Shown here one piece after another: positions 6,780 through 63,088 of a stretch of DNA of 64,000 nucleotides; within the stretch, counting starts at the first letter, position 1, and each line of letters begins with the position of its first letter. This DNA is from Escherichia coli (GTDB lineage Bacteria; Pseudomonadota; Gammaproteobacteria; Enterobacterales; Enterobacteriaceae): assembly GCF_044324785.1 (NCBI RefSeq), contig NZ_CP172127.1. One strand, 5' to 3'. The notes under the pieces are model-generated. The model made no database searches. It was not told the DNA's origin and was given only the letters and a program-made list of their open reading frames with translations. A program made the translations under genes and the position numbers.

Positions 6780-8141
6780 ATGTTTGATAATTTAACCGAT
6801 CGTTTGTCGCGCACGCTGCGCAATATCAGTGGCCGTGGACGCCTCACTGAAGACAACGTAAAAGATACGCTGCGCGAAGTGCGCATGGCGCTGCTGGAGG
6901 CGGACGTCGCTCTGCCGGTAGTGCGTGAGTTTATCAATCGCGTAAAAGAGAAAGCGGTTGGTCATGAAGTTAATAAGAGCCTGACGCCGGGGCAGGAGTT
7001 CGTCAAAATCGTCCGTAACGAACTGGTTGCGGCGATGGGCGAAGAGAACCAGACCCTGAACCTGGCTGCGCAACCGCCTGCGGTCGTGCTGATGGCGGGC
7101 CTGCAAGGTGCCGGTAAAACAACCAGCGTTGGTAAACTCGGTAAGTTCCTGCGCGAGAAGCACAAGAAGAAAGTGCTGGTGGTTTCCGCCGACGTTTATC
7201 GCCCGGCGGCAATCAAACAGCTTGAGACGCTGGCAGAGCAGGTGGGCGTTGATTTCTTCCCTTCTGATGTTGGTCAGAAGCCGGTAGATATCGTTAACGC
7301 GGCGCTGAAAGAAGCCAAACTGAAATTCTACGACGTGCTGCTGGTGGATACCGCTGGTCGTCTGCACGTTGACGAAGCGATGATGGATGAGATCAAACAA
7401 GTCCATGCGTCGATTAATCCGGTTGAAACCCTGTTTGTGGTTGACGCCATGACCGGTCAGGATGCGGCCAATACGGCAAAAGCATTCAATGAAGCGTTAC
7501 CGCTTACCGGTGTAGTGTTGACCAAAGTGGACGGCGATGCCCGCGGTGGTGCGGCGCTCTCTATTCGTCACATCACTGGCAAACCGATCAAGTTCCTCGG
7601 TGTTGGCGAGAAAACTGAGGCGCTGGAGCCGTTCCATCCGGACCGCATCGCGTCGCGTATTCTAGGCATGGGCGACGTACTGTCGCTGATCGAAGATATC
7701 GAAAGCAAAGTTGACCGCGCGCAGGCAGAGAAATTAGCCAGCAAGCTAAAAAAAGGCGACGGCTTCGATCTCAACGACTTCCTTGAGCAACTGCGCCAGA
7801 TGAAAAATATGGGCGGCATGGCCAGCTTGATGGGCAAACTGCCGGGCATGGGGCAGATCCCGGATAACGTCAAGTCACAGATGGACGATAAAGTGCTGGT
7901 GCGTATGGAAGCCATCATCAACTCGATGACGATGAAAGAGCGCGCTAAGCCAGAAATCATCAAAGGTTCGCGTAAGCGTCGTATCGCTGCCGGTTGCGGT
8001 ATGCAGGTGCAGGACGTTAACCGCCTTCTGAAGCAGTTCGACGACATGCAGCGCATGATGAAGAAAATGAAGAAGGGCGGAATGGCGAAGATGATGAGAA
8101 GCATGAAGGGTATGATGCCGCCGGGATTTCCTGGTCGCTAA
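6780..8141 (+). CDS. ffh: Signal recognition particle protein Ffh
   Basis: 453 aa, SRP54-type GTPase motifs GLQGAGKTT and DTAGR, Met-rich C-terminal domain. Confidence 0.95.
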   Translation: MFDNLTDRLSRTLRNISGRGRLTEDNVKDTLREVRMALLEADVALPVVREFINRVKEKAVGHEVNKSLTPGQEFVKIVRNELVAAMGEENQTLNLAAQPPAVVLMAGLQGAGKTTSVGKLGKFLREKHKKKVLVVSADVYRPAAIKQLETLAEQVGVDFFPSDVGQKPVDIVNAALKEAKLKFYDVLLVDTAGRLHVDEAMMDEIKQVHASINPVETLFVVDAMTGQDAANTAKAFNEALPLTGVVLTKVDGDARGGAALSIRHITGKPIKFLGVGEKTEALEPFHPDRIASRILGMGDVLSLIEDIESKVDRAQAEKLASKLKKGDGFDLNDFLEQLRQMKNMGGMASLMGKLPGMGQIPDNVKSQMDDKVLVRMEAIINSMTMKERAKPEIIKGSRKRRIAAGCGMQVQDVNRLLKQFDDMQRMMKKMKKGGMAKMMRSMKGMMPPGFPGR

Positions 8142-8199
8142 ATGACCTTATGCGACAGAGTTATTAACTGCTGATTGCATTTTCTCCAGAAATCAGTAA

Positions 8200-9929: not shown

Positions 9930-10280
<351 letters not shown>

Positions 10281-10306
10281 GGTTTCGCTTAAGCGACATC
10301 CTGTTA

Positions 10307-10339
10307 AGAAGGGCTGGCCAATTGGCTGGCCCTTTTTTT
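10307..10339 (+). terminator. rplS operon terminator
   Basis: GGGCTGGCCAATTGGCTGGCCC hairpin followed by TTTTTTT. Confidence 0.75.
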
Positions 10340-10356: not shown

Positions 10357-10839
10357 TTAAGGGGTAGTAATCACCACTGCGACGCGGCGGTTCTCGGCGC
10401 GGCCCTGGGCGGTCTTGTTACTGGCTATGGGATATTTTTTTCCTAAACCCTGTGTGGTGAGATTGCTGCGCGGAATTTGTCCACCTATAGCCCATGCATC
10501 GGCCACAACATTCGCCCGTTTCAATGATAAGGCTTCGTTGTAACTGTCTTCACCATAGTTGTCGGTGTGTCCATCCATACGGGCATGCGTTAGCCCTGTC
10601 GAGGCCAATTTGGCTGCCATGGTTTGGATCTGTTGCTGGCTTTCCGGGAGCAATTTGTAGTCATTTTTTGCGAACAGAATGGCATCTGATAAGCCCAGCG
10701 ACCAGTCGCCGGCGGATTCAGTAAATCCATAAGATTGCATAGCGGCGACTTGCTCAGGAGTAAACTTTCCCTGAGGGGACTGGCAGCCAGTCAGTATTAG
10801 TGAGGTGAAAATCAGGGGTGCTACCAGGTGCTTTATCAT
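10357..10839 (-). CDS. yfiB: OmpA-like outer membrane lipoprotein YfiB (Pal-like), activator arm of the YfiBNR module
   Basis: 160 aa, lipobox LTGCQ, C-terminal OmpA domain. Confidence 0.9.
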   Translation of the reverse strand: MIKHLVAPLIFTSLILTGCQSPQGKFTPEQVAAMQSYGFTESAGDWSLGLSDAILFAKNDYKLLPESQQQIQTMAAKLASTGLTHARMDGHTDNYGEDSYNEALSLKRANVVADAWAIGGQIPRSNLTTQGLGKKYPIASNKTAQGRAENRRVAVVITTP

Positions 10840-10854
10840 ATCGATATATCCTTG

Positions 10855-12081
10855 TTATCTCACCAGCTTTTCGGCACGCTGGTGTTTGGCCTGATACATA
10901 TTGTGATCGGCCAGCTCTTGTAATTTTTCCGCAGAAGCGTGCGCAATGGTCATTGCGTAACCAATGCTTAATGTCATGGTGGTCTGATGGCCATTATGAA
11001 GATCAAACGGGTGATTAAAGATTTGTGTCAGTGCTGAGCATATCTGCTGCACTTCAGATTCCGACTGTACATCATAGAGCACCATCGCGAATTCATCGCC
11101 GCCCAGGCGGTATGCTTTATGTCGCAGCCCGCCAAATTCAGCTAACCGTTTTGCGATTTCAATCAAGACTCTATCGCCCGTCGCATGACCCCAGGTATCA
11201 TTGATATATTTGAAATTATCGCCATCAAGAAATAGTAACGCCGACGTTTTTCGGGCATCGGAATTGTTCATCAACGTGTTGATGCCGCTACGAAACGCTG
11301 CGCGGTTAGCCAGCCCGGTTAATGGGTCATGTAGCGCGGTACGTAGAAGCTGCGCATTTTTGGCCTGTAAACGAAGCTGCCACTCTTCCATTTCATCCAG
11401 CAGACTGTTGAAGTCGAGTGCGAAGCGGTGAAACTCAGCGATACGTTCTTCCGAAACTCGCCGGGAAAAATTGCGGTTGGAACGTACGTCATGCACGACA
11501 TCGGTGATATTTTTCAATGCTTCCACCAGACCATTGTGCAAATGACGGGTGAGGGTAATTGCGATGCCTGATGCCAGCAGAATACAACCGGTCAGTACGG
11601 CGAGCGAAAACCAGATAAAATGGCTGATTGAACTGTCGCGAGCGGTTAAGCGTACTTCGCCAATGGTTTCACCATTGTGACGAATCGGCTGAATGATGGG
11701 GGCAGGGAAGAGCCAGTGGCTTATGAAATTACTGAAAGTATCGCCTGGATCCTTACGGGTGTAATGCCAGGATGCCAGAATATTTTGCTGCTTATCACGC
11801 ACTTCTGCAGTTGAAAATTGCCCTTGCTGCCCCAGCGCTGCCAGTGTTTCAGTTGCTGCAGGGCCATCGGCAAAAACGACCGCTGCTTCCAGACTGTAAG
11901 TCATTGTTGCTGCTGTCAGTGCCAGGTTTTTTTGCGCGTACTGTTTCAGGGTCAGCACCGAGGTCACGGAAAGCAGCAACCAGATCAGCATCATAGTGAT
12001 AAATATGCTGGTCATACTGATGTTGCGTAATGCTCTTTTAAACGTGGGGCGCTTATTAAGAGAATTATCGTTATCCATCAT
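10855..12081 (-). CDS. dgcN: Diguanylate cyclase DgcN (YfiN): periplasmic sensor, HAMP and GGDEF domains
   Basis: 408 aa, membrane N-terminus and GGDEF domain with RLGGDEF active-site motif. Confidence 0.9.
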
Positions 12082-12589
12082 TTTTCTTCCGTGCGAGCAT
12101 TAAGACATCCGGGTTGACCTTTACACCGCTACGCGATAAGGCATCCAGGTTTACGGCAAATCTGACGTCATTATTGTGGATGATCAGACAAAAGGCGCTA
12201 CCAATAATGCACTCGGTATTTTGTTCGGCAATTAATAATAACGCCTTTGACGGATATTGTTCGGTTAATTCCATCTGGAATGTCGGTGACTCGTTGCCAA
12301 AATAAAAACCATTGCAGCCTGAAATCATCGCCTCTTGTTGAGTGTGAATGATGACAGGCAGATAAGGCAAAGATGTCGCGGCATTCTCTTGTAGGGCGGT
12401 ACTAAAACGTGAAGATGAAAAGATACATAACTTTGGTGGCCCTGATAGCGCAGGCCAGCGGGTGTAACTGACAATACCGGAAACCATCATACGCACGTTT
12501 TTCGCAACGTCAGAAGGTTCCTGAGCGAGTATTGGTGCTCCCGTCAGCAGGAGAATCAGCAGTAAGAACAGTCGGTGAGAAAAACGCAT
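12071..12589 (-). CDS. yfiR: Periplasmic repressor of DgcN, YfiR
   Basis: 172 aa with signal peptide; overlaps dgcN start by 11 bp (yfiRNB operon). Confidence 0.9.
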
Positions 12590-12738
12590 TCAGGGATCCT
12601 CACCATCTTCGCTCGAAATGCATCGATATTTTTTAAGAATGCTCATTAAAATATCATTCTTTCATGCGGTCGTCATCAATGTGAGAAATAAAACACAATG
12701 AGTAAAATCTCATGCTTAATTTATTTGCGGGGGTTTAA

Positions 12739-13104
12739 TTAATTTAATCGTATTGTGCTGGCATTTTCATCAGCCCCTTTTTGCCATACTTCATGCAGTT
12801 GGCTGGCATTTTCAACATTGTTGCAGCTGGCAGGAAAGCTTTTACCGGAAAGTCCTCGGGCATAAGTAAAATCGGTCTGGCAAGTTTTCTTTTGTCCTTC
12901 GGCATATCCTTTAAGGTATAGACTGCGATCCGCCTGTGAATCGCTAAATGCATCGTCATCTTTTATGGCGTTGCCCGATATCGCATCTTCCATACCGACA
13001 TCATACCAGTCGGTGCTGGTCAAGGTTGGCGCGTGAGTATAAGGATCAATCTGACATCCGCTAACCAGTAAAGCCAACAAGGGGGCGATAAACTTTTTCA
13101 TCAT
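12739..13104 (-). CDS. yfiL: Putative lipoprotein YfiL
   Basis: Signal peptide with lipobox LVSGCQ; start chosen at the ATG preceded by GGAG (MMKKFIAPLL...); the ORF-track start at 13143 is an over-extension. Confidence 0.75.
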   Translation of the reverse strand: MMKKFIAPLLALLVSGCQIDPYTHAPTLTSTDWYDVGMEDAISGNAIKDDDAFSDSQADRSLYLKGYAEGQKKTCQTDFTYARGLSGKSFPASCNNVENASQLHEVWQKGADENASTIRLN

Positions 13105-13149
13105 TTCTTTCTCCTTTTTCAAAGCATAGCGGATTGTTTTCAAAGGTGG

Positions 13150-13219: not shown

Positions 13220-13313
13220 AAATATGGATTGAAAACTTTACTTTATGTGTTATCGTTACGTCATCCTCGCTGAGGATCAACTATCGCAAACGAGCATAAA
13301 CAGGATCGCCATC

Positions 13314-14384
13314 ATGCAAAAAGACGCGCTGAATAACGTACATATTACCGACGAACAGGTTTTAATGACTCCGGAACAACTGAAGGCCGCTTTTCCATTA
13401 AGCCTGCAACAAGAAGCCCAGATTGCTGACTCGCGTAAAACCATTTCAGATATTATCGCCGGGCGCGATCCTCGTCTTCTGGTAGTATGTGGTCCTTGTT
13501 CCATTCATGATCCGGAAACTGCTCTGGAATATGCTCGTCGATTTAAAGCCCTTGCCGCAGAGGTCAGCGATAGCCTCTATCTGGTAATGCGCGTCTATTT
13601 TGAAAAACCCCGTACCACTGTCGGTTGGAAAGGGTTGATTAACGATCCCCATATGGATGGCTCTTTTGATGTAGAAGCCGGGCTGCAGATCGCGCGTAAA
13701 TTGCTGCTTGAGCTGGTGAATATGGGACTGCCACTGGCGACGGAAGCGTTAGATCCGAATAGCCCGCAATACCTGGGCGATCTGTTTAGCTGGTCAGCAA
13801 TTGGTGCTCGTACAACGGAATCGCAAACTCACCGTGAAATGGCCTCCGGGCTTTCCATGCCGGTTGGTTTTAAAAACGGCACCGACGGCAGTCTGGCAAC
13901 AGCAATTAACGCTATGCGCGCCGCCGCCCAGCCGCACCGTTTTGTTGGCATTAACCAGGCAGGGCAGGTGGCGTTGCTACAAACTCAGGGGAATCCGGAC
14001 GGGCATGTGATCCTGCGCGGTGGTAAAGCGCCGAACTATAGCCCTGCGGATGTTGCGCAATGTGAAAAAGAGATGGAACAGGCGGGACTGCGCCCGTCTC
14101 TGATGGTAGATTGCAGCCACGGTAATTCCAATAAAGATTATCGCCGTCAGCCTGCGGTGGCAGAGTCCGTGGTTGCTCAGATCAAAGATGGTAATCGCTC
14201 CATTATTGGTCTGATGATTGAAAGTAATATCCACGAAGGTAATCAGTCTTCCGAACAGCCGCGTAGCGAAATGAAATACGGCGTGTCTGTAACCGATGCC
14301 TGCATTAGTTGGGAAATGACCGATGCCTTGCTGCGTGAAATTCATCAGGATCTGAACGGGCAGCTGACGGCTCGCGTGGCTTAA
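13314..14384 (+). CDS. aroF: DAHP synthase, tyrosine-sensitive
   Basis: 356 aa [25 protein letters not shown]... Confidence 0.95.
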
Positions 14385-16740: not shown

Positions 16741-16776
16741 AATAAAAAAGGCCCCCCGATTTGGGAGGCCTTATTG
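16741..16776 (-). promoter_or_regulatory. pheA transcription attenuator (terminator hairpin between pheL and pheA)
   Basis: Minus strand reads CAATAAGGCCTCCCAAATCGGGGGGCCTTTTTTATT. Confidence 0.85.
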
Positions 16777-16818
16777 TTCGTCTTCGCATTCTGTTTCACA
16801 CGACGAAACGCCTCCCAT

Positions 16819-16866
16819 TCAGGGGAAGGTAAAAAAGAATGCGAAGAAAAACGGTGTGTGTTTCAT
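16819..16866 (-). CDS. pheL: pheA leader peptide (15 aa, seven Phe codons)
   Basis: Minus strand ATGAAACACACACCGTTTTTCTTCGCATTCTTTTTTACCTTCCCCTGA = [15 protein letters not shown]. Confidence 0.9.
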   Translation of the reverse strand: [15 protein letters not shown]

Positions 16867-16920
16867 GTTTGTTTCCTTAAGTGACTTCAGTACAGTACCC
16901 GTACTGTTTTCACGCTGTCA

Positions 16921-20162: not shown

Positions 20163-20224
20163 CCTAAAGAATCAAGACGATCCGGTACGCGTGATTTTCT
20201 TTTCACATTAATCTGGTCAATAAC

Positions 20225-20253
20225 CTTGAATAATTGAGGGATGACCTCATTTA
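20225..20253 (+). promoter_or_regulatory. Sigma-32 heat-shock promoter of clpB
   Basis: CTTGAAT, 13 nt spacer, CCTCATTTA. Confidence 0.7.
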
Positions 20254-20291
20254 ATCTCCAGTAGCAACTTTGATCCGTTATGGGAGGAGTT

Positions 20292-22865
20292 ATGCGTCTG
20301 GATCGTCTTACTAATAAATTCCAGCTTGCTCTTGCCGATGCCCAATCACTTGCACTCGGGCACGACAACCAATTCATCGAACCACTTCATTTAATGAGCG
20401 CCCTGCTGAATCAGGAAGGGGGTTCGGTTAGTCCTTTATTAACATCCGCTGGCATTAATGCTGGCCAGTTGCGCACAGATATCAATCAGGCATTAAATCG
20501 TTTACCGCAGGTTGAAGGTACTGGTGGTGATGTCCAGCCATCACAGGATCTGGTGCGCGTTCTTAATCTTTGCGACAAGTTGGCGCAAAAACGTGGTGAT
20601 AACTTTATCTCGTCAGAACTGTTCGTTCTGGCGGCACTTGAGTCTCGCGGCACGCTGGCCGACATCCTGAAAGCAGCAGGGGCGACCACCGCCAACATTA
20701 CTCAAGCGATTGAACAAATGCGTGGAGGTGAAAGCGTGAACGATCAAGGTGCTGAAGACCAACGTCAGGCTTTGAAAAAATATACCATCGACCTTACCGA
20801 ACGAGCCGAACAAGGCAAACTCGATCCGGTGATTGGTCGTGATGAAGAAATTCGCCGTACCATTCAGGTGCTGCAACGTCGTACTAAAAATAACCCGGTA
20901 CTGATTGGTGAACCAGGCGTCGGTAAAACTGCCATCGTTGAAGGTCTGGCGCAGCGTATCATCAACGGCGAAGTGCCGGAAGGGTTGAAAGGCCGCCGCG
21001 TACTGGCGCTGGATATGGGCGCGCTGGTGGCTGGGGCGAAATATCGCGGTGAGTTTGAAGAACGTTTAAAAGGCGTACTTAACGATCTTGCTAAACAGGA
21101 AGGCAACGTCATCCTGTTTATCGACGAATTACATACCATGGTCGGCGCGGGTAAAGCCGATGGCGCAATGGACGCCGGAAACATGCTGAAACCGGCGCTG
21201 GCGCGTGGTGAATTGCACTGCGTAGGTGCCACGACGCTTGACGAATATCGCCAGTACATCGAAAAAGATGCTGCGCTGGAGCGTCGTTTCCAGAAAGTGT
21301 TTGTTGCCGAGCCTTCTGTTGAAGACACCATTGCTATTCTGCGTGGCTTAAAAGAACGTTACGAACTGCACCACCATGTGCAAATTACTGACCCGGCAAT
21401 TGTTGCAGCTGCGACGTTGTCTCATCGCTACATTGCTGACCGTCAGCTGCCGGATAAAGCCATCGACCTGATCGATGAAGCAGCATCCAGCATTCGTATG
21501 CAGATTGACTCAAAACCAGAAGAACTCGACCGACTCGATCGTCGTATCATCCAGCTCAAACTGGAACAACAGGCGTTAATGAAAGAGTCTGATGAAGCCA
21601 GTAAAAAACGCCTGGATATGCTCAACGAAGAACTGAGCGACAAAGAACGTCAGTACTCCGAGTTAGAAGAAGAGTGGAAAGCAGAGAAAGCATCGCTTTC
21701 TGGTACACAGACCATTAAAGCGGAACTGGAACAGGCGAAAATCGCTATTGAACAGGCTCGCCGTGTGGGTGACCTGGCGCGGATGTCTGAACTGCAATAC
21801 GGCAAAATCCCGGAACTGGAAAAGCAACTGGAAGCCGCAACGCAGCTCGAAGGCAAAACTATGCGTCTGTTGCGTAATAAAGTGACCGACGCCGAAATTG
21901 CTGAAGTGCTGGCGCGTTGGACGGGGATTCCGGTTTCTCGCATGATGGAAAGCGAGCGCGAAAAACTGCTGCGTATGGAGCAAGAGCTGCACCATCGCGT
22001 TATTGGTCAGAACGAAGCGGTTGATGCGGTATCTAACGCTATTCGTCGTAGCCGTGCGGGGCTGGCGGATCCAAATCGCCCGATTGGTTCATTCCTGTTC
22101 CTCGGCCCAACGGGTGTGGGGAAAACTGAGCTTTGTAAGGCGCTGGCGAACTTTATGTTTGATAGCGACGAGGCGATGGTCCGTATCGATATGTCCGAGT
22201 TTATGGAGAAACACTCGGTGTCTCGTCTGGTTGGTGCGCCTCCGGGATATGTCGGTTATGAAGAAGGTGGCTACCTGACCGAAGCTGTGCGTCGTCGTCC
22301 GTATTCCGTCATCCTGCTGGATGAAGTGGAAAAAGCGCATCCGGATGTCTTCAACATTCTGTTGCAGGTACTGGATGATGGGCGTCTGACTGACGGGCAG
22401 GGGAGAACGGTCGACTTCCGTAATACGGTTGTCATTATGACCTCTAACCTCGGTTCCGATTTGATTCAGGAACGCTTCGGTGAACTGGATTATGCGCACA
22501 TGAAAGAGCTGGTGCTCGGTGTGGTAAGCCATAACTTCCGTCCGGAATTCATTAACCGTATCGATGAAGTGGTGGTCTTCCATCCGCTGGGTGAACAGCA
22601 CATTGCGTCGATTGCGCAGATTCAGTTGAAACGTCTGTATAAACGTCTGGAAGAACGTGGTTATGAAATCCACATTTCTGACGAGGCGCTGAAACTGCTG
22701 AGCGAGAACGGTTACGATCCGGTCTATGGTGCACGTCCTCTGAAACGTGCTATCCAGCAGCAGATCGAAAACCCGCTGGCACAGCAAATACTGTCTGGTG
22801 AATTGGTTCCGGGTAAAGTTATTCGCCTGGAAGTTAATGAAGACCGGATTGTCGCCGTCCAGTAA
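20292..22865 (+). CDS. clpB: Disaggregase chaperone ClpB (857 aa); internal GTG at 20736 is the ClpB-80 start
   Basis: [18 protein letters not shown]...; two AAA+ modules with Walker A GEPGVGKT and GPTGVGKT; the ORF-track start at 20280 is 4 codons too long. Confidence 0.95.
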
Positions 22866-23307: not shown

Positions 23308-24849
<1,542 letters not shown>

Positions 24850-24934
24850 CCTTAAAGAAGCGTTCTTTGTAGTGCTCACACAGATTGTCTGATAGAAAGT
24901 GAAAAGCAAGGCGTCTTGCGAAGCAGACTGATAC

Positions 24935-25010
24935 GTCCCCTTCGTCTAGAGGCCCAGGACACCGCCCTTTCACGGCGGTAACAGGGGTTCGAATCCCCTA
25001 GGGGACGCCA
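24935..25010 (+). tRNA. gltW: tRNA-Glu (UUC) in the 16S-23S spacer
   Basis: GTCCCCTTCGTCTAGAGGCCCAGGACACCGCCCTTTCACGGCGGTAACAGGGGTTCGAATCCCCTAGGGGACGCCA. Confidence 0.95.
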
Positions 25011-25194
25011 CTTGCTGGTTTGTGAGTGAAAGTCACCTGCCTTGATATCTCAAAACTCATCTTCGGGTGATGTTTGAGATATTTGCTCTTTAAAAATCTG
25101 GATCAAGCTGAAAATTGAAACACTGAACAACGAAAGTTGTTCGTGAGTCTCTCAAATTTTCGCAACTCTGAAGTGAAACATCTTCGGGTTGTGA

Positions 25195-28099
<2,905 letters not shown>

Positions 28100-28191
28100 A
28101 CAACGCCGAAGATGTTTTGGCGGATGAGAGAAGATTTTCAGCCTGATACAGATTAAATCAGAACGCAGAAGCGGTCTGATAAAACAGAATT

Positions 28192-28311
28192 TGCCTGGCG
28201 GCCGTAGCGCGGTGGTCCCACCTGACCCCATGCCGAACTCAGAAGTGAAACGCCGTAGCGCCGATGGTAGTGTGGGGTCTCCCCATGCGAGAGTAGGGAA
28301 CTGCCAGGCAT
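28192..28311 (+). rRNA. rrfG: 5S ribosomal RNA (rrnG operon)
   Basis: TGCCTGGCGGCCGTAGCGCGGTGG...GGGAACTGCCAGGCAT, 120 nt. Confidence 0.97.
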
Positions 28312-39981: not shown

Positions 39982-40016
39982 AAATAATGCCGGGCTTAAA
40001 CCCGGCATTGAAATTA
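39981..40016 (-). terminator. srmB terminator (between convergent yfiE and srmB)
   Basis: ATGCCGGGCTTAAACCCGGCAT hairpin with a T-run on the minus strand. Confidence 0.7.
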
Positions 40017-45490: not shown

Positions 45491-46446
45491 TGAAGCAACT
45501 TTGGTTTGCCATGTCATTAGTGACAGGTAGCCTGTTATTCTCTGCTAACGCCTCGGCCACTCCCGCGTCCGGGGCGTTATTACAGCAGATGAACCTGGCC
45601 AGTCAGTCACTGAATTACGAGCTGTCATTTATCAGCATCAATAAACAGGGTGTTGAGTCTCTGCGTTATCGACATGCACGCCTCGATAACCGTCCTCTTG
45701 CACAATTGTTGCAAATGGATGGCCCGCGCCGGGAAGTGGTACAGCGCGGCAATGAAATCAGCTATTTTGAACCGGGACTTGAACCGTTCACGCTTAATGG
45801 CGATTACATTGTTGATTCTCTGCCATCGCTCATCTATACCGATTTCAAACGCCTTTCTCCTTACTACGACTTTATCTCCGTCGGGCGCACGCGTATTGCT
45901 GATCGTCTTTGCGAAGTCATTCGCGTGGTTGCCCGAGATGGTACACGCTACAGCTACATCGTGTGGATGGACACCGAATCGAAATTACCGATGCGGGTTG
46001 ATCTCCTTGATCGCGATGGTGAAACGCTGGAACAATTTCGCGTGATTGCTTTTAACGTCAATCAGGATATCGGCAGCAGTATGCAGACGCTGGCGAAGGC
46101 AAATTTGCCGCCGTTGCTTTCTGTTCCTGTAGGTGAAAAAGCTAAATTCAGCTGGACGCCAACCTGGTTGCCACAGGGTTTTAGCGAAGTTTCCAGTAGT
46201 CGACGTCCGCTACCGACGATGGACAACATGCCTATCGAATCACGTCTCTATTCCGACGGATTATTCAGCTTCTCGGTAAACGTTAACCGCGCTACGCCAT
46301 CGAGCACCGATCAGATGTTGCGCACCGGGCGCAGAACCGTCAGTACAAGCGTACGTGATAACGCCGAAATCACCATTGTCGGTGAACTGCCGCCGCAAAC
46401 GGCGAAACGCATTGCCGAGAATATTAAGTTCGGGGCAGCGCAATGA
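45490..46446 (+). CDS. rseB: Sigma-E regulatory protein RseB
   Basis: 318 aa with signal peptide; stop/start overlap with rseA. Confidence 0.95.
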   Translation: MKQLWFAMSLVTGSLLFSANASATPASGALLQQMNLASQSLNYELSFISINKQGVESLRYRHARLDNRPLAQLLQMDGPRREVVQRGNEISYFEPGLEPFTLNGDYIVDSLPSLIYTDFKRLSPYYDFISVGRTRIADRLCEVIRVVARDGTRYSYIVWMDTESKLPMRVDLLDRDGETLEQFRVIAFNVNQDIGSSMQTLAKANLPPLLSVPVGEKAKFSWTPTWLPQGFSEVSSSRRPLPTMDNMPIESRLYSDGLFSFSVNVNRATPSSTDQMLRTGRRTVSTSVRDNAEITIVGELPPQTAKRIAENIKFGAAQ

Positions 46447-46922
46447 TCAAAGAGTGGGCTACCGTCGTCTCCTGGGAAAACGGGCAGGCGCTGGTTAGTT
46501 GTGATGTTAAAGCCTCATGCAGCAGCTGCGCTTCACGCGCCGGTTGCGGTAGCCGCGTGTTGAATAAACTTGGCCCGCAAACCACGCATACCATTGTCGT
46601 ACCCTGTGATGAGCCGTTAGTGCCGGGGCAAAAAGTGGAATTGGGGATCGCCGAAGGCAGCCTGCTTAGCTCCGCATTACTGGTTTATATGTCGCCGCTG
46701 GTGGGATTATTTCTCATCGCTTCGCTATTTCAGCTACTCTTTGCTTCAGATATTGCAGCATTATGCGGTGCGATTCTCGGTGGCGTTGGTGGATTCCTGA
46801 TTGCACGTGGCTGCTCTCGAAAGTTTGCTGCCCGGTCTGAATGGCAACCGATCATCTTAAGCGTGGCATTGCCGCCTGGCCTTGTGCGATTTGAAACATC
46901 TTCGGAAGACGCGAGCCAGTGA
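46443..46922 (+). CDS. rseC: Sigma-E regulatory protein RseC
   Basis: 159 aa, membrane protein with Cys-rich N-terminus. Confidence 0.9.
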   Translation: MIKEWATVVSWENGQALVSCDVKASCSSCASRAGCGSRVLNKLGPQTTHTIVVPCDEPLVPGQKVELGIAEGSLLSSALLVYMSPLVGLFLIASLFQLLFASDIAALCGAILGGVGGFLIARGCSRKFAARSEWQPIILSVALPPGLVRFETSSEDASQ

Positions 46923-47119
46923 TTTCACTGGCTTTGTTGCATTTTGCATAACAAATGCGAGGACGTTTCCAGATACCACAATCCATACGGTATGAACATT
47001 TCCTCGCCTCAATGTTGTAGTGTAGAATGCGGCGTTTCTATTAATACAGACGTTAAGCTCAGAACAGCGACTTCTAAAAGCCTGGTTAACCGGGCATTAA
47101 GGCACAATAATCATACTTT

Positions 47120-48919
<1,800 letters not shown>

Positions 48920-49909: not shown

Positions 49910-50151
49910 TAGCCCATCTTCGTTCACGTTGTCGCCGTTATGGCGACAACGTGAATTATTTATGAGATAAATCTCCCGTGGCTAACGACATCCCCCGTCG
50001 TTGTGTATAGAATATTCCCCCGAAGTTTAAGGTTGGCACCTCCAGGTTGCCACGGCACACGAAACAGCGTTGGTCCCCATATACCGGTAAACTGAAACTG
50101 CAGCGAAGCAGTTAGCAGAGCCATGTATATCAGGTCTGTTTCGTGTGCTGA

Positions 50152-51764
<1,613 letters not shown>

Positions 51765-53627: not shown

Positions 53628-53653
53628 AAATAATACCGTTCTCTTTATAAAGT

Positions 53654-53692
53654 AAAACCCCCGAACTGGTAAGGAACGGGGGTTTTACTTTT
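53654..53692. terminator. acpS terminator, bidirectional
   Basis: AAAACCCCCGAACTGGTAAGGAACGGGGGTTTTACTTTTT. Confidence 0.8.
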
Positions 53693-54048
53693 TAACTTTA
53701 ATTTTGTGCAGCACACGATTCCAACGGAAATGATTATGGATCAATTTCGTTATCCTGTACAAGCAACTTGCAATCTCTGACATAAAAAACGCGAGCCTTT
53801 ACGAAGAAATCGACATTGATGAAAAGATTAACGTGACCGCTTTTTGATAAGTACATTAAAATCGGTTTCGTTATTGGCAATTTTGCTGTGCTTTACACCA
53901 TGCCACTGAATTCCCCCATTGAAACGAGTGGTGTCGTCAAAGCTCTGGTGTGGAGTGCAGCACTCGATTCCAATAACTCGCACGTTCAGTTTTGGGGAGA
54001 TGTAAGGGCTAATCTGAACGGCTGCATTCCTTGTTTAAGGAAAAACGA

Positions 54049-62904: not shown

Positions 62905-63088
62905 AGTGGCTCATTCACCGACTTATGTCAGCCCCTTCGGGACGTGCTACATAAAATTCGAATGACGCACAACAAGGTGCCTGCCGTCCAACTTCTGATA
63001 TCAGCGTAGCTATATCAACCATCGGGCGAAACGTCGAGTTAGGCACCGCCTTATTCCATAACAAAGCCGGGTAATTCCCGGCTTTGTT
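62905..63088 (+). ncRNA. glmY: Small regulatory RNA GlmY (GlmZ decoy controlling glmS)
   Basis: Starts about 12 nt downstream of the sigma-54 -12 element at AGTGGCTCATTCACC; ends at terminator AAAGCCGGGTAATTCCCGGCTTTGTTGT; position between purL and glrK. Confidence 0.8.

Follow-up and report, generated by a model that had tools for sequence, protein, structure and literature searches.

An intact yfiR-dgcN-yfiB operon, presumably functional, as an allelic copy of a known Escherichia coli K-12 locus

Introduction

Do the three minus-strand genes at 10357-12589 of a 64,000-nucleotide stretch of Escherichia coli DNA (hereafter the window) form the YfiBNR c-di-GMP signalling module, and how much of what is known of that module can be carried over to them? 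An initial annotation, made from the letters of the DNA, took them for a periplasmic repressor (yfiR), an inner-membrane HAMP-GGDEF diguanylate cyclase (dgcN, also called yfiN) and an OmpA/Pal-like outer-membrane lipoprotein (yfiB), which together would make a complete relay from envelope stress to c-di-GMP with relevance to small-colony variants. We put at roughly 96% the probability that the locus is the chromosomal E. coli yfiR-dgcN-yfiB operon, intact and presumably functional, with its function transferred from K-12 and P. aeruginosa.

The model in which YfiR represses the cyclase and YfiB sequesters YfiR stems from P. aeruginosa (PMC2837407, PMC3375315, PMC4887326). In E. coli, YfiR inhibits YfiN via the periplasmic domain of the latter, and this inhibition is relieved by DTT or by loss of dsbA; de-repression of YfiN activates cellulose production, and further envelope stress sends YfiN to the Z ring in an FtsZ- and ZipA-dependent manner and arrests division (PMC4992967). 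Work on the same protein has found that YfiN, for want of I-sites, can deplete GTP and stop growth when the carbon source is gluconeogenic (PMC10127611).

Results

Gene arrangement and flanking signals

A program-made list of open reading frames places three intact minus-strand frames of 172, 408 and 160 amino acids at 10357-12589 (Table 1), in exact agreement with the limits first assigned to the genes, and the domain matches within them lie far above chance. All three share a strand and follow one another directly as yfiR-yfiN-yfiB. They had been described as three overlapping genes, which is correct for yfiR and dgcN, whose 11-nt overlap spans 12071-12081 (ATGATGGATAA), but not for dgcN and yfiB, which are separated by 15 nt. 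The neighbourhood reads rplS / yfiB-dgcN-yfiR-yfiL / aroF, as at K-12 b2603-b2605; the rplS flank also holds rpsP, rimM and trmD (rpsP-rimM-trmD-rplS), and the flank of yfiL and aroF also holds tyrA.

Table 1. Coordinates of the features of the yfiR-dgcN-yfiB locus in the window
Feature	Coordinates	Strand	Basis
yfiL-yfiR intergenic region, presumed operon promoter region	12590-12738	-	position, RBS
yfiR, DgcN repressor (periplasmic)	12071-12589	-	172 aa; ORF list, Pfam, NCBIfam
dgcN (yfiN), diguanylate cyclase of the inner membrane	10855-12081	-	408 aa; ORF list, NCBIfam
DgcN hydrophobic segment 1, residues ~20-46	11944-12024	-	Kyte-Doolittle
CHASE8 periplasmic sensor, DgcN residues 45-146	11644-11949	-	Pfam CHASE8 1.3e-33, full model 1-102
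DgcN hydrophobic segment 2, residues ~150-179	11545-11634	-	Kyte-Doolittle
Divergent HAMP-like linker, DgcN residues ~181-235	11377-11541	-	homology to Pfam-positive relatives
DgcN GGDEF catalytic domain, residues 249-403	10873-11337	-	Pfam GGDEF 3.2e-43
I-site-equivalent tetrapeptide GLRH, DgcN residues 318-321	11119-11130	-	translation
GGDEF motif, intact, DgcN residues 327-331	11089-11103	-	translation
dgcN-yfiB spacer, 15 nt, CAAGGATATATCGAT	10840-10854	-	with AAGGA Shine-Dalgarno-like RBS; K-12 identical
yfiB, OmpA/Pal-like lipoprotein of the outer membrane	10357-10839	-	160 aa; Pfam, NCBIfam
YfiB lipobox LTGC, residues 16-19	10783-10794	-	Cys19 = sole Cys; +2 = Gln
YfiB OmpA_C peptidoglycan-binding domain, residues 55-151	10387-10677	-	Pfam OmpA
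G+C-rich palindromic hairpin, 14 pairs, T-run on + strand	10306-10337	.	terminator scan; K-12 conserved

A plausible ribosome-binding site precedes each of yfiR, dgcN and yfiB, that of yfiR being a GAGGA 8 nt upstream of the ATG. With the 11-nt overlap and the 15-nt spacer, translation of the three genes would be coupled and the three proteins kept in step. A scan for sigma-70 promoters returned 5 sites, where chance alone would give 5.3, and none of them lies on the minus strand within the intergenic region upstream of yfiR (12590-12738). The absence of a clear sigma-70 promoter there fits the very low native expression reported by Kim and Harshey, according to whom the transcriptional signals are not known (PMC4992967). 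Downstream, rplS and yfiB converge, and the palindromic hairpin lies between their stop codons (10278-10280 and 10357-10359) and is likely a terminator shared by the two genes, although its use by yfiB is our extrapolation; the scan left it uncalled on the minus strand because the tail on that strand is only TTCTTAAC.

Comparison with K-12 and occurrence in E. coli

K-12 MG1655 carries yfiR-dgcN-yfiB in the same order, with the same neighbours, gene lengths and 11-nt overlap and an identical 15-nt spacer. At the nucleotide level yfiR is 99.6% identical to its K-12 counterpart, with 0 amino-acid changes (YfiR 100% identical), dgcN is 98.2% identical, with the substitutions L357H and E380A, and yfiB is 98.3% identical, with the conservative changes V10I, G103A and M118I. 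Both substitutions in DgcN fall in variable columns of an alignment with 90 relatives of the family.

When we compared the locus with complete E. coli genomes by megablast, it was matched in 5425 of 5426, always on the chromosome and annotated dgcN/yfiR/yfiB, with a best DNA identity of only 99.2%. The exact sequences of all three proteins are already catalogued as E. coli, the DgcN allele on 292 contigs, and the entire window is collinear with K-12 at ~2.69-2.75 Mb (97-98% identity). Given these catalogued proteins and this collinearity, we rejected a source outside E. coli, considered in view of the best DNA identity, and read the stretch as ordinary E. coli chromosome from outside the K-12 lineage; the locus itself is, on sequence comparison, an allelic copy of K-12 yfiR-dgcN-yfiB from another E. 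coli lineage. Some E. coli strains carry broken copies, for example with IS200C in dgcN of CFSAN018748.

YfiR and YfiB as repressor and lipoprotein

YfiR matched the Pfam family DUF4154 ('YfiR/HmsC-like', E=4.9e-31) and passed the NCBIfam equivalog sequest_YfiR (NF053586) with 168 bits against a cut-off of 85. Its hydrophobic N-terminus forms a predicted signal peptide over residues 1-22, ending in ILA ahead of QE. Four cysteines are present (C55, C92, C127 and C134), and alignment to the structures of P. aeruginosa YfiR at 1e-16 indicates that all four are conserved in that protein, where they make up two disulfide pairs. The equivalog match, the export signal and both conserved cysteine pairs agree with the role of periplasmic repressor that had been assigned to yfiR.

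YfiB passed two NCBIfam models, OMP_LP_YfiB (NF053585; 231.3 bits, cut-off 128) and PRK09967 (NF007424; 348 bits, cut-off 155), and matched Pfam OmpA at 6.7e-18. The Gln at position +2 of its lipobox fits targeting to the outer membrane through Lol sorting. In an alignment with structures of P. aeruginosa YfiB (1.2e-31), F39 and W46 are conserved as P. aeruginosa F48 and W55 (numbering derived from the alignment) and M34 is the equivalent of L43, a position that we placed via the L43P mutant chain 6ikk. The peptidoglycan-binding region GHTDNYG...R (GHTDNYG and RA motifs) is likewise conserved with P. aeruginosa 4zhv. Both models, the LTGC lipobox and the OmpA_C domain point to the OmpA/Pal-like lipoprotein that had been proposed.

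DgcN also passed its equivalog (DgcN/YfiN, NF007423; 504.6 bits against a cut-off of 325, over residues 11-399). With all three NCBIfam equivalogs passed and the K-12 gene order and neighbours in place, the reading of the locus as a tripartite YfiBNR module is well founded. The same three-protein architecture is known from P. aeruginosa YfiBNR (YfiB, structure 4zhv; TpbB/YfiN, 7a7e and 4iob; YfiR, 4yn7 and 5y61), which shares the YfiR cysteine pairs and the YfiB lipobox and peptidoglycan-binding residues and is otherwise distant in identity.

The catalytic domain of DgcN

The nearest solved relative of DgcN is P. aeruginosa TpbB (7a7e), matched over the GGDEF domain at 5e-28. To gauge conservation, we aligned DgcN to 90 relatives, all full-length and 24-46% identical, collected by an exhaustive search with the half of the protein that holds the sensor and linker. 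The alignment has 43 columns conserved at >=90%, and DgcN agrees with the consensus in 42 of them, D286, N294, D303, R325 and K399 of the catalytic domain included; the sole departure is at the Asp of the I-site, which is H321 in DgcN. No degenerate GG(D/E)EF motif and no disrupted reading frame, the two findings named in advance as counting against the annotation, came to light: residues 327-331 are intact, and the comparison of the active site with homologues came out in its favour. DgcN is presumably catalytically competent, as judged from its GGDEF motif and conserved columns.

We weighed this against the possibility that DgcN is degenerate or inactive as a GGDEF protein, or that the operon is a decaying cluster of pseudogenes. 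The replaced I-site Asp and the replacement of the HAMP helix-1 Pro by A188 could be taken as signs of decay, and disrupted copies do occur in some E. coli, as in CFSAN018748. Yet GLRH and A188 are found, together with GGDEF, in K-12 YfiN, a demonstrated active cyclase (PMC10127611), while every other conserved catalytic column is at consensus and the genes contain no stops or frameshifts and have K-12 lengths. With motif, conserved columns and frames intact, we rejected this reading at the level of the sequence and regard its probability as close to nil.

Loss of the RxxD I-site

A comparison of the I-site with characterized homologues, also proposed with the initial annotation, gave a different outcome: RxxD is absent, as in the published E. 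coli YfiN, and we found no RxxD anywhere in the DgcN protein. In P. aeruginosa TpbB the canonical I-site is kept as RESD, five residues ahead of GGDEF, whereas E. coli has GLRH after a 2-residue deletion. RxxD is present in 71 of the 90 distant relatives (24-46% identity) and absent among the tetrapeptides tallied in the listed enterobacterial orthologues, which are 65-99% identical. Because distant relatives have the motif and close orthologues have none, its loss is derived within the enterobacterial clade and not specific to this strain. Hwang and Harshey reported that E. coli YfiN is without an RxxD I-site and that changing GLRH to RxxD restored the site (PMC10127611).

Mapping of the published secondary I-site 'N280' onto DgcN was unsuccessful: the 408-aa protein has Ser at position 280, and the closest column that could plausibly correspond is N289.

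A HAMP linker too divergent for Pfam

The Pfam search suggested for the locus recovered GGDEF and OmpA_C but no HAMP, and it identified the sensor as CHASE8. The HAMP model (PF00672), applied to the whole DgcN protein and to the isolated linker at E<=10, returned nothing but a spurious Med29 match; the precomputed Pfam annotations of the 120 closest DgcN orthologues contain no HAMP; and phmmer with the linker against the PDB at E<=10 gave chance coiled-coil/transmembrane matches and no HAMP chain.

The distant relatives gave a different picture. HAMP is significant in 56 of the 90 (24-46% identity; best 8.1e-9), and these matches align without gaps to DgcN ~180-235, for example P0199 at 187-239, P0200 at 183-235 and P0193 at 188-236. 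Against the family consensus (PL...A..VAH.VR..R.F..RVP...IAE...L..DFNALL.EL), DgcN keeps the helix-2 signature DFNxLLxE as DFNSLLDEM, with N225 invariant, and has Ala188 at the helix-1 position occupied by Pro in 74 of the 91 aligned sequences. DgcN also weakly matches the BaeS and LapD HAMP regions.

Because it aligns gap-free to Pfam-positive HAMP domains of distant relatives, we read the DgcN linker as HAMP and hold it, on this homology, to be a genuine but divergent member. The literature also uses the HAMP label for YfiN (PMC4992967, PMC10127611). The description 'HAMP-GGDEF cyclase' can thus be kept, its GGDEF half on a direct match (3.2e-43) and its HAMP half through transitive homology despite the negative direct search.

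Discussion

The locus is one that is already known, and by our comparisons nothing in its sequence departs from the known E. coli state; we expect the allele to behave as that of K-12. DgcN would be a dimeric cyclase of the inner membrane built from a first transmembrane segment, a periplasmic CHASE8 sensor, a second transmembrane segment, the divergent HAMP and the GGDEF domain. Periplasmic YfiR would bind the sensor domain and hold DgcN off until the two YfiR disulfides are broken, under reducing conditions or when DsbA is lost, and the cyclase is released; the c-di-GMP then made by freed DgcN would inhibit motility and activate cellulose production. De-repressed DgcN, having no RxxD feedback, would run unchecked, which underlies the published growth arrest by GTP depletion. 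With additional envelope stress, DgcN would move to the Z ring and cell division would be blocked. YfiB, anchored to peptidoglycan through OmpA_C, could sequester YfiR upon envelope stress, as demonstrated in P. aeruginosa.

The part played by YfiB is where the E. coli evidence leaves most room for another reading, namely that the locus works as a two-part redox switch of YfiR and DgcN, with YfiB peripheral or in some other envelope role and not the main stress input. Kim and Harshey found the envelope-stress relocation of YfiN unaffected in an E. coli yfiB knockout, inactivating YfiR with DTT or through dsbA is documented to relieve repression in E. coli, and yfiB is missing from Salmonella, which does have yfiRN (PMC4992967). 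On the other hand, the YfiB studied here retains its lipobox, its peptidoglycan-binding residues and its N-terminal segment, in which P. aeruginosa L43, F48 and W55 control activation; it scores above the OMP_LP_YfiB equivalog cut-off, and yfiB is kept beside dgcN in essentially all E. coli. In Shigella flexneri, a very close relative, a yfiB knockout is reported to alter c-di-GMP levels and biofilm formation (PMC8948675). We consider a switch that largely bypasses YfiB possible but rather unlikely, and retain the three-part operon as the preferred reading.

The claim of a complete relay can accordingly be kept in part: the three genes are intact, but the YfiB-driven step has been shown in Pseudomonas, with the Shigella knockout beside it, and yfiB is dispensable for relocation in E. 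coli. The proposed relevance to small-colony variants does not carry over, as that phenotype belongs to Pseudomonas, whereas E. coli YfiN is associated with cellulose, motility, division arrest and growth arrest by GTP depletion. Both framings call for caution before they are transferred from Pseudomonas to E. coli.

Salmonella enterica yfiRN encodes a DgcN orthologue of ~75% identity with CHASE8 and GGDEF (P0105), and Salmonella YfiN does not relocate under envelope stress (PMC4992967). Yersinia pestis HmsCDE is likened here by name (Pfam 'YfiR/HmsC-like'), and its output is Hms-dependent biofilm in the flea.

The locus has little import beyond correct annotation: it is a core operon of E. 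coli with genetic studies behind it, and its P. aeruginosa counterpart is structurally solved. What is gained is a cleaner description, that of an intact cyclase without product feedback whose HAMP is too divergent for Pfam.

One only mildly new observation concerns the two departures of DgcN from its family. Loss of the helix-1 Pro and loss of RxxD tend to co-occur among the relatives (counts 63/11/8/8; Fisher p=0.004, with phylogeny ignored), which may simply reflect shared ancestry. That the two losses in enterobacterial DgcN instead mark re-wired signalling, tied to Z-ring binding and GTP-draining synthesis, and are not neutral drift, strikes us as improbable.

Numbering of the DgcN secondary I-site

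Comparison of DgcN with the published description of its secondary I-site revealed a discrepancy in numbering, as the residue is given as 'N280' (PMC10127611), which disagrees with the 408-aa numbering of both the window and K-12 proteins, where residue 280 is a serine. An asparagine is found at position 289 within DGDNF, in an alignment column whose commonest residue is arginine (23 of the 91 sequences, comprising the window DgcN and 90 full-length relatives).

Probable disruption and predicted fusions of the locus in other strains and relatives

Upon matching the locus to complete E. coli genomes, we observed that the match in strain CFSAN018748 (NZ_CP028192.1) is broken into two pieces. The annotation of this strain lists a transposase of IS200C and, as an entry of its own, a 'diguanylate cyclase domain-containing protein'. 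Together, these observations suggest that dgcN of this strain is naturally disrupted by an IS.

Among the closest DgcN orthologues catalogued from public E. coli assemblies (P0048, P0049 and P0064), we noted predicted fusions of two types, YfiR-DgcN (525-542 aa, DUF4154+CHASE8+GGDEF) and DgcN-YfiB (512 aa, with OmpA). A distant relative, P0193 (383 aa), carries CHASE8, HAMP and OmpA domains without GGDEF. All of these forms probably arose at the tight gene junctions, through frameshifts or as artefacts of gene calling.

Neighboring genes and window-wide features

The gene yfiL lies 149 nt upstream of yfiR on the same strand, and its mechanical ORF begins at TTG 13143 (134 aa) as opposed to the K-12 annotation, which begins at ATG 13104 (121 aa). 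The mechanical aroF ORF spans 379 aa compared to the 356 aa annotated in K-12; the true start is probably an internal ATG, and the 5' extension of the ORF is therefore likely non-coding.

Features located in the window.
Feature	Position	Strand	Description
DgcN residues 280 and 289	about 11215-11244		
yfiL	12739-13143	-	DUF2799 lipoprotein, lipobox LVSGC
aroF ORF	13245-14384	+	mechanical, from ATG 13245
Phe leader	16742-16867	-	Rfam, gathering-score match
RyfD	20173-20311	+	Rfam, gathering-score match
Complete rRNA operon (16S, tRNA, 23S, 5S)	23308-28309	+	counterpart of K-12 rrnG
StyR-44	25088-25187		Rfam match in spacer of rrnG-equivalent operon
AsrC	46407-47238	-	antisense to rseC; Rfam, gathering-score match
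rncO	50022-50236	+	Rfam, gathering-score match
OhsC	53649-53725	-	Rfam, gathering-score match
GlmY	62905-63052	+	Rfam, gathering-score match

Phe leader, RyfD, AsrC, rncO, OhsC and GlmY are known E. coli RNAs, all placed as K-12 synteny predicts. K-12 carries three short additional intergenic pieces that the window lacks. The rpsP-ffh interval is affected by ~126 bp (window position about 8141-8156), the 16S-tRNA-Glu spacer by ~106 bp (about 24914-24935) and the srmB-yfiE interval by ~146 bp (about 39985-40015); these differences probably represent REP-type or spacer variation.
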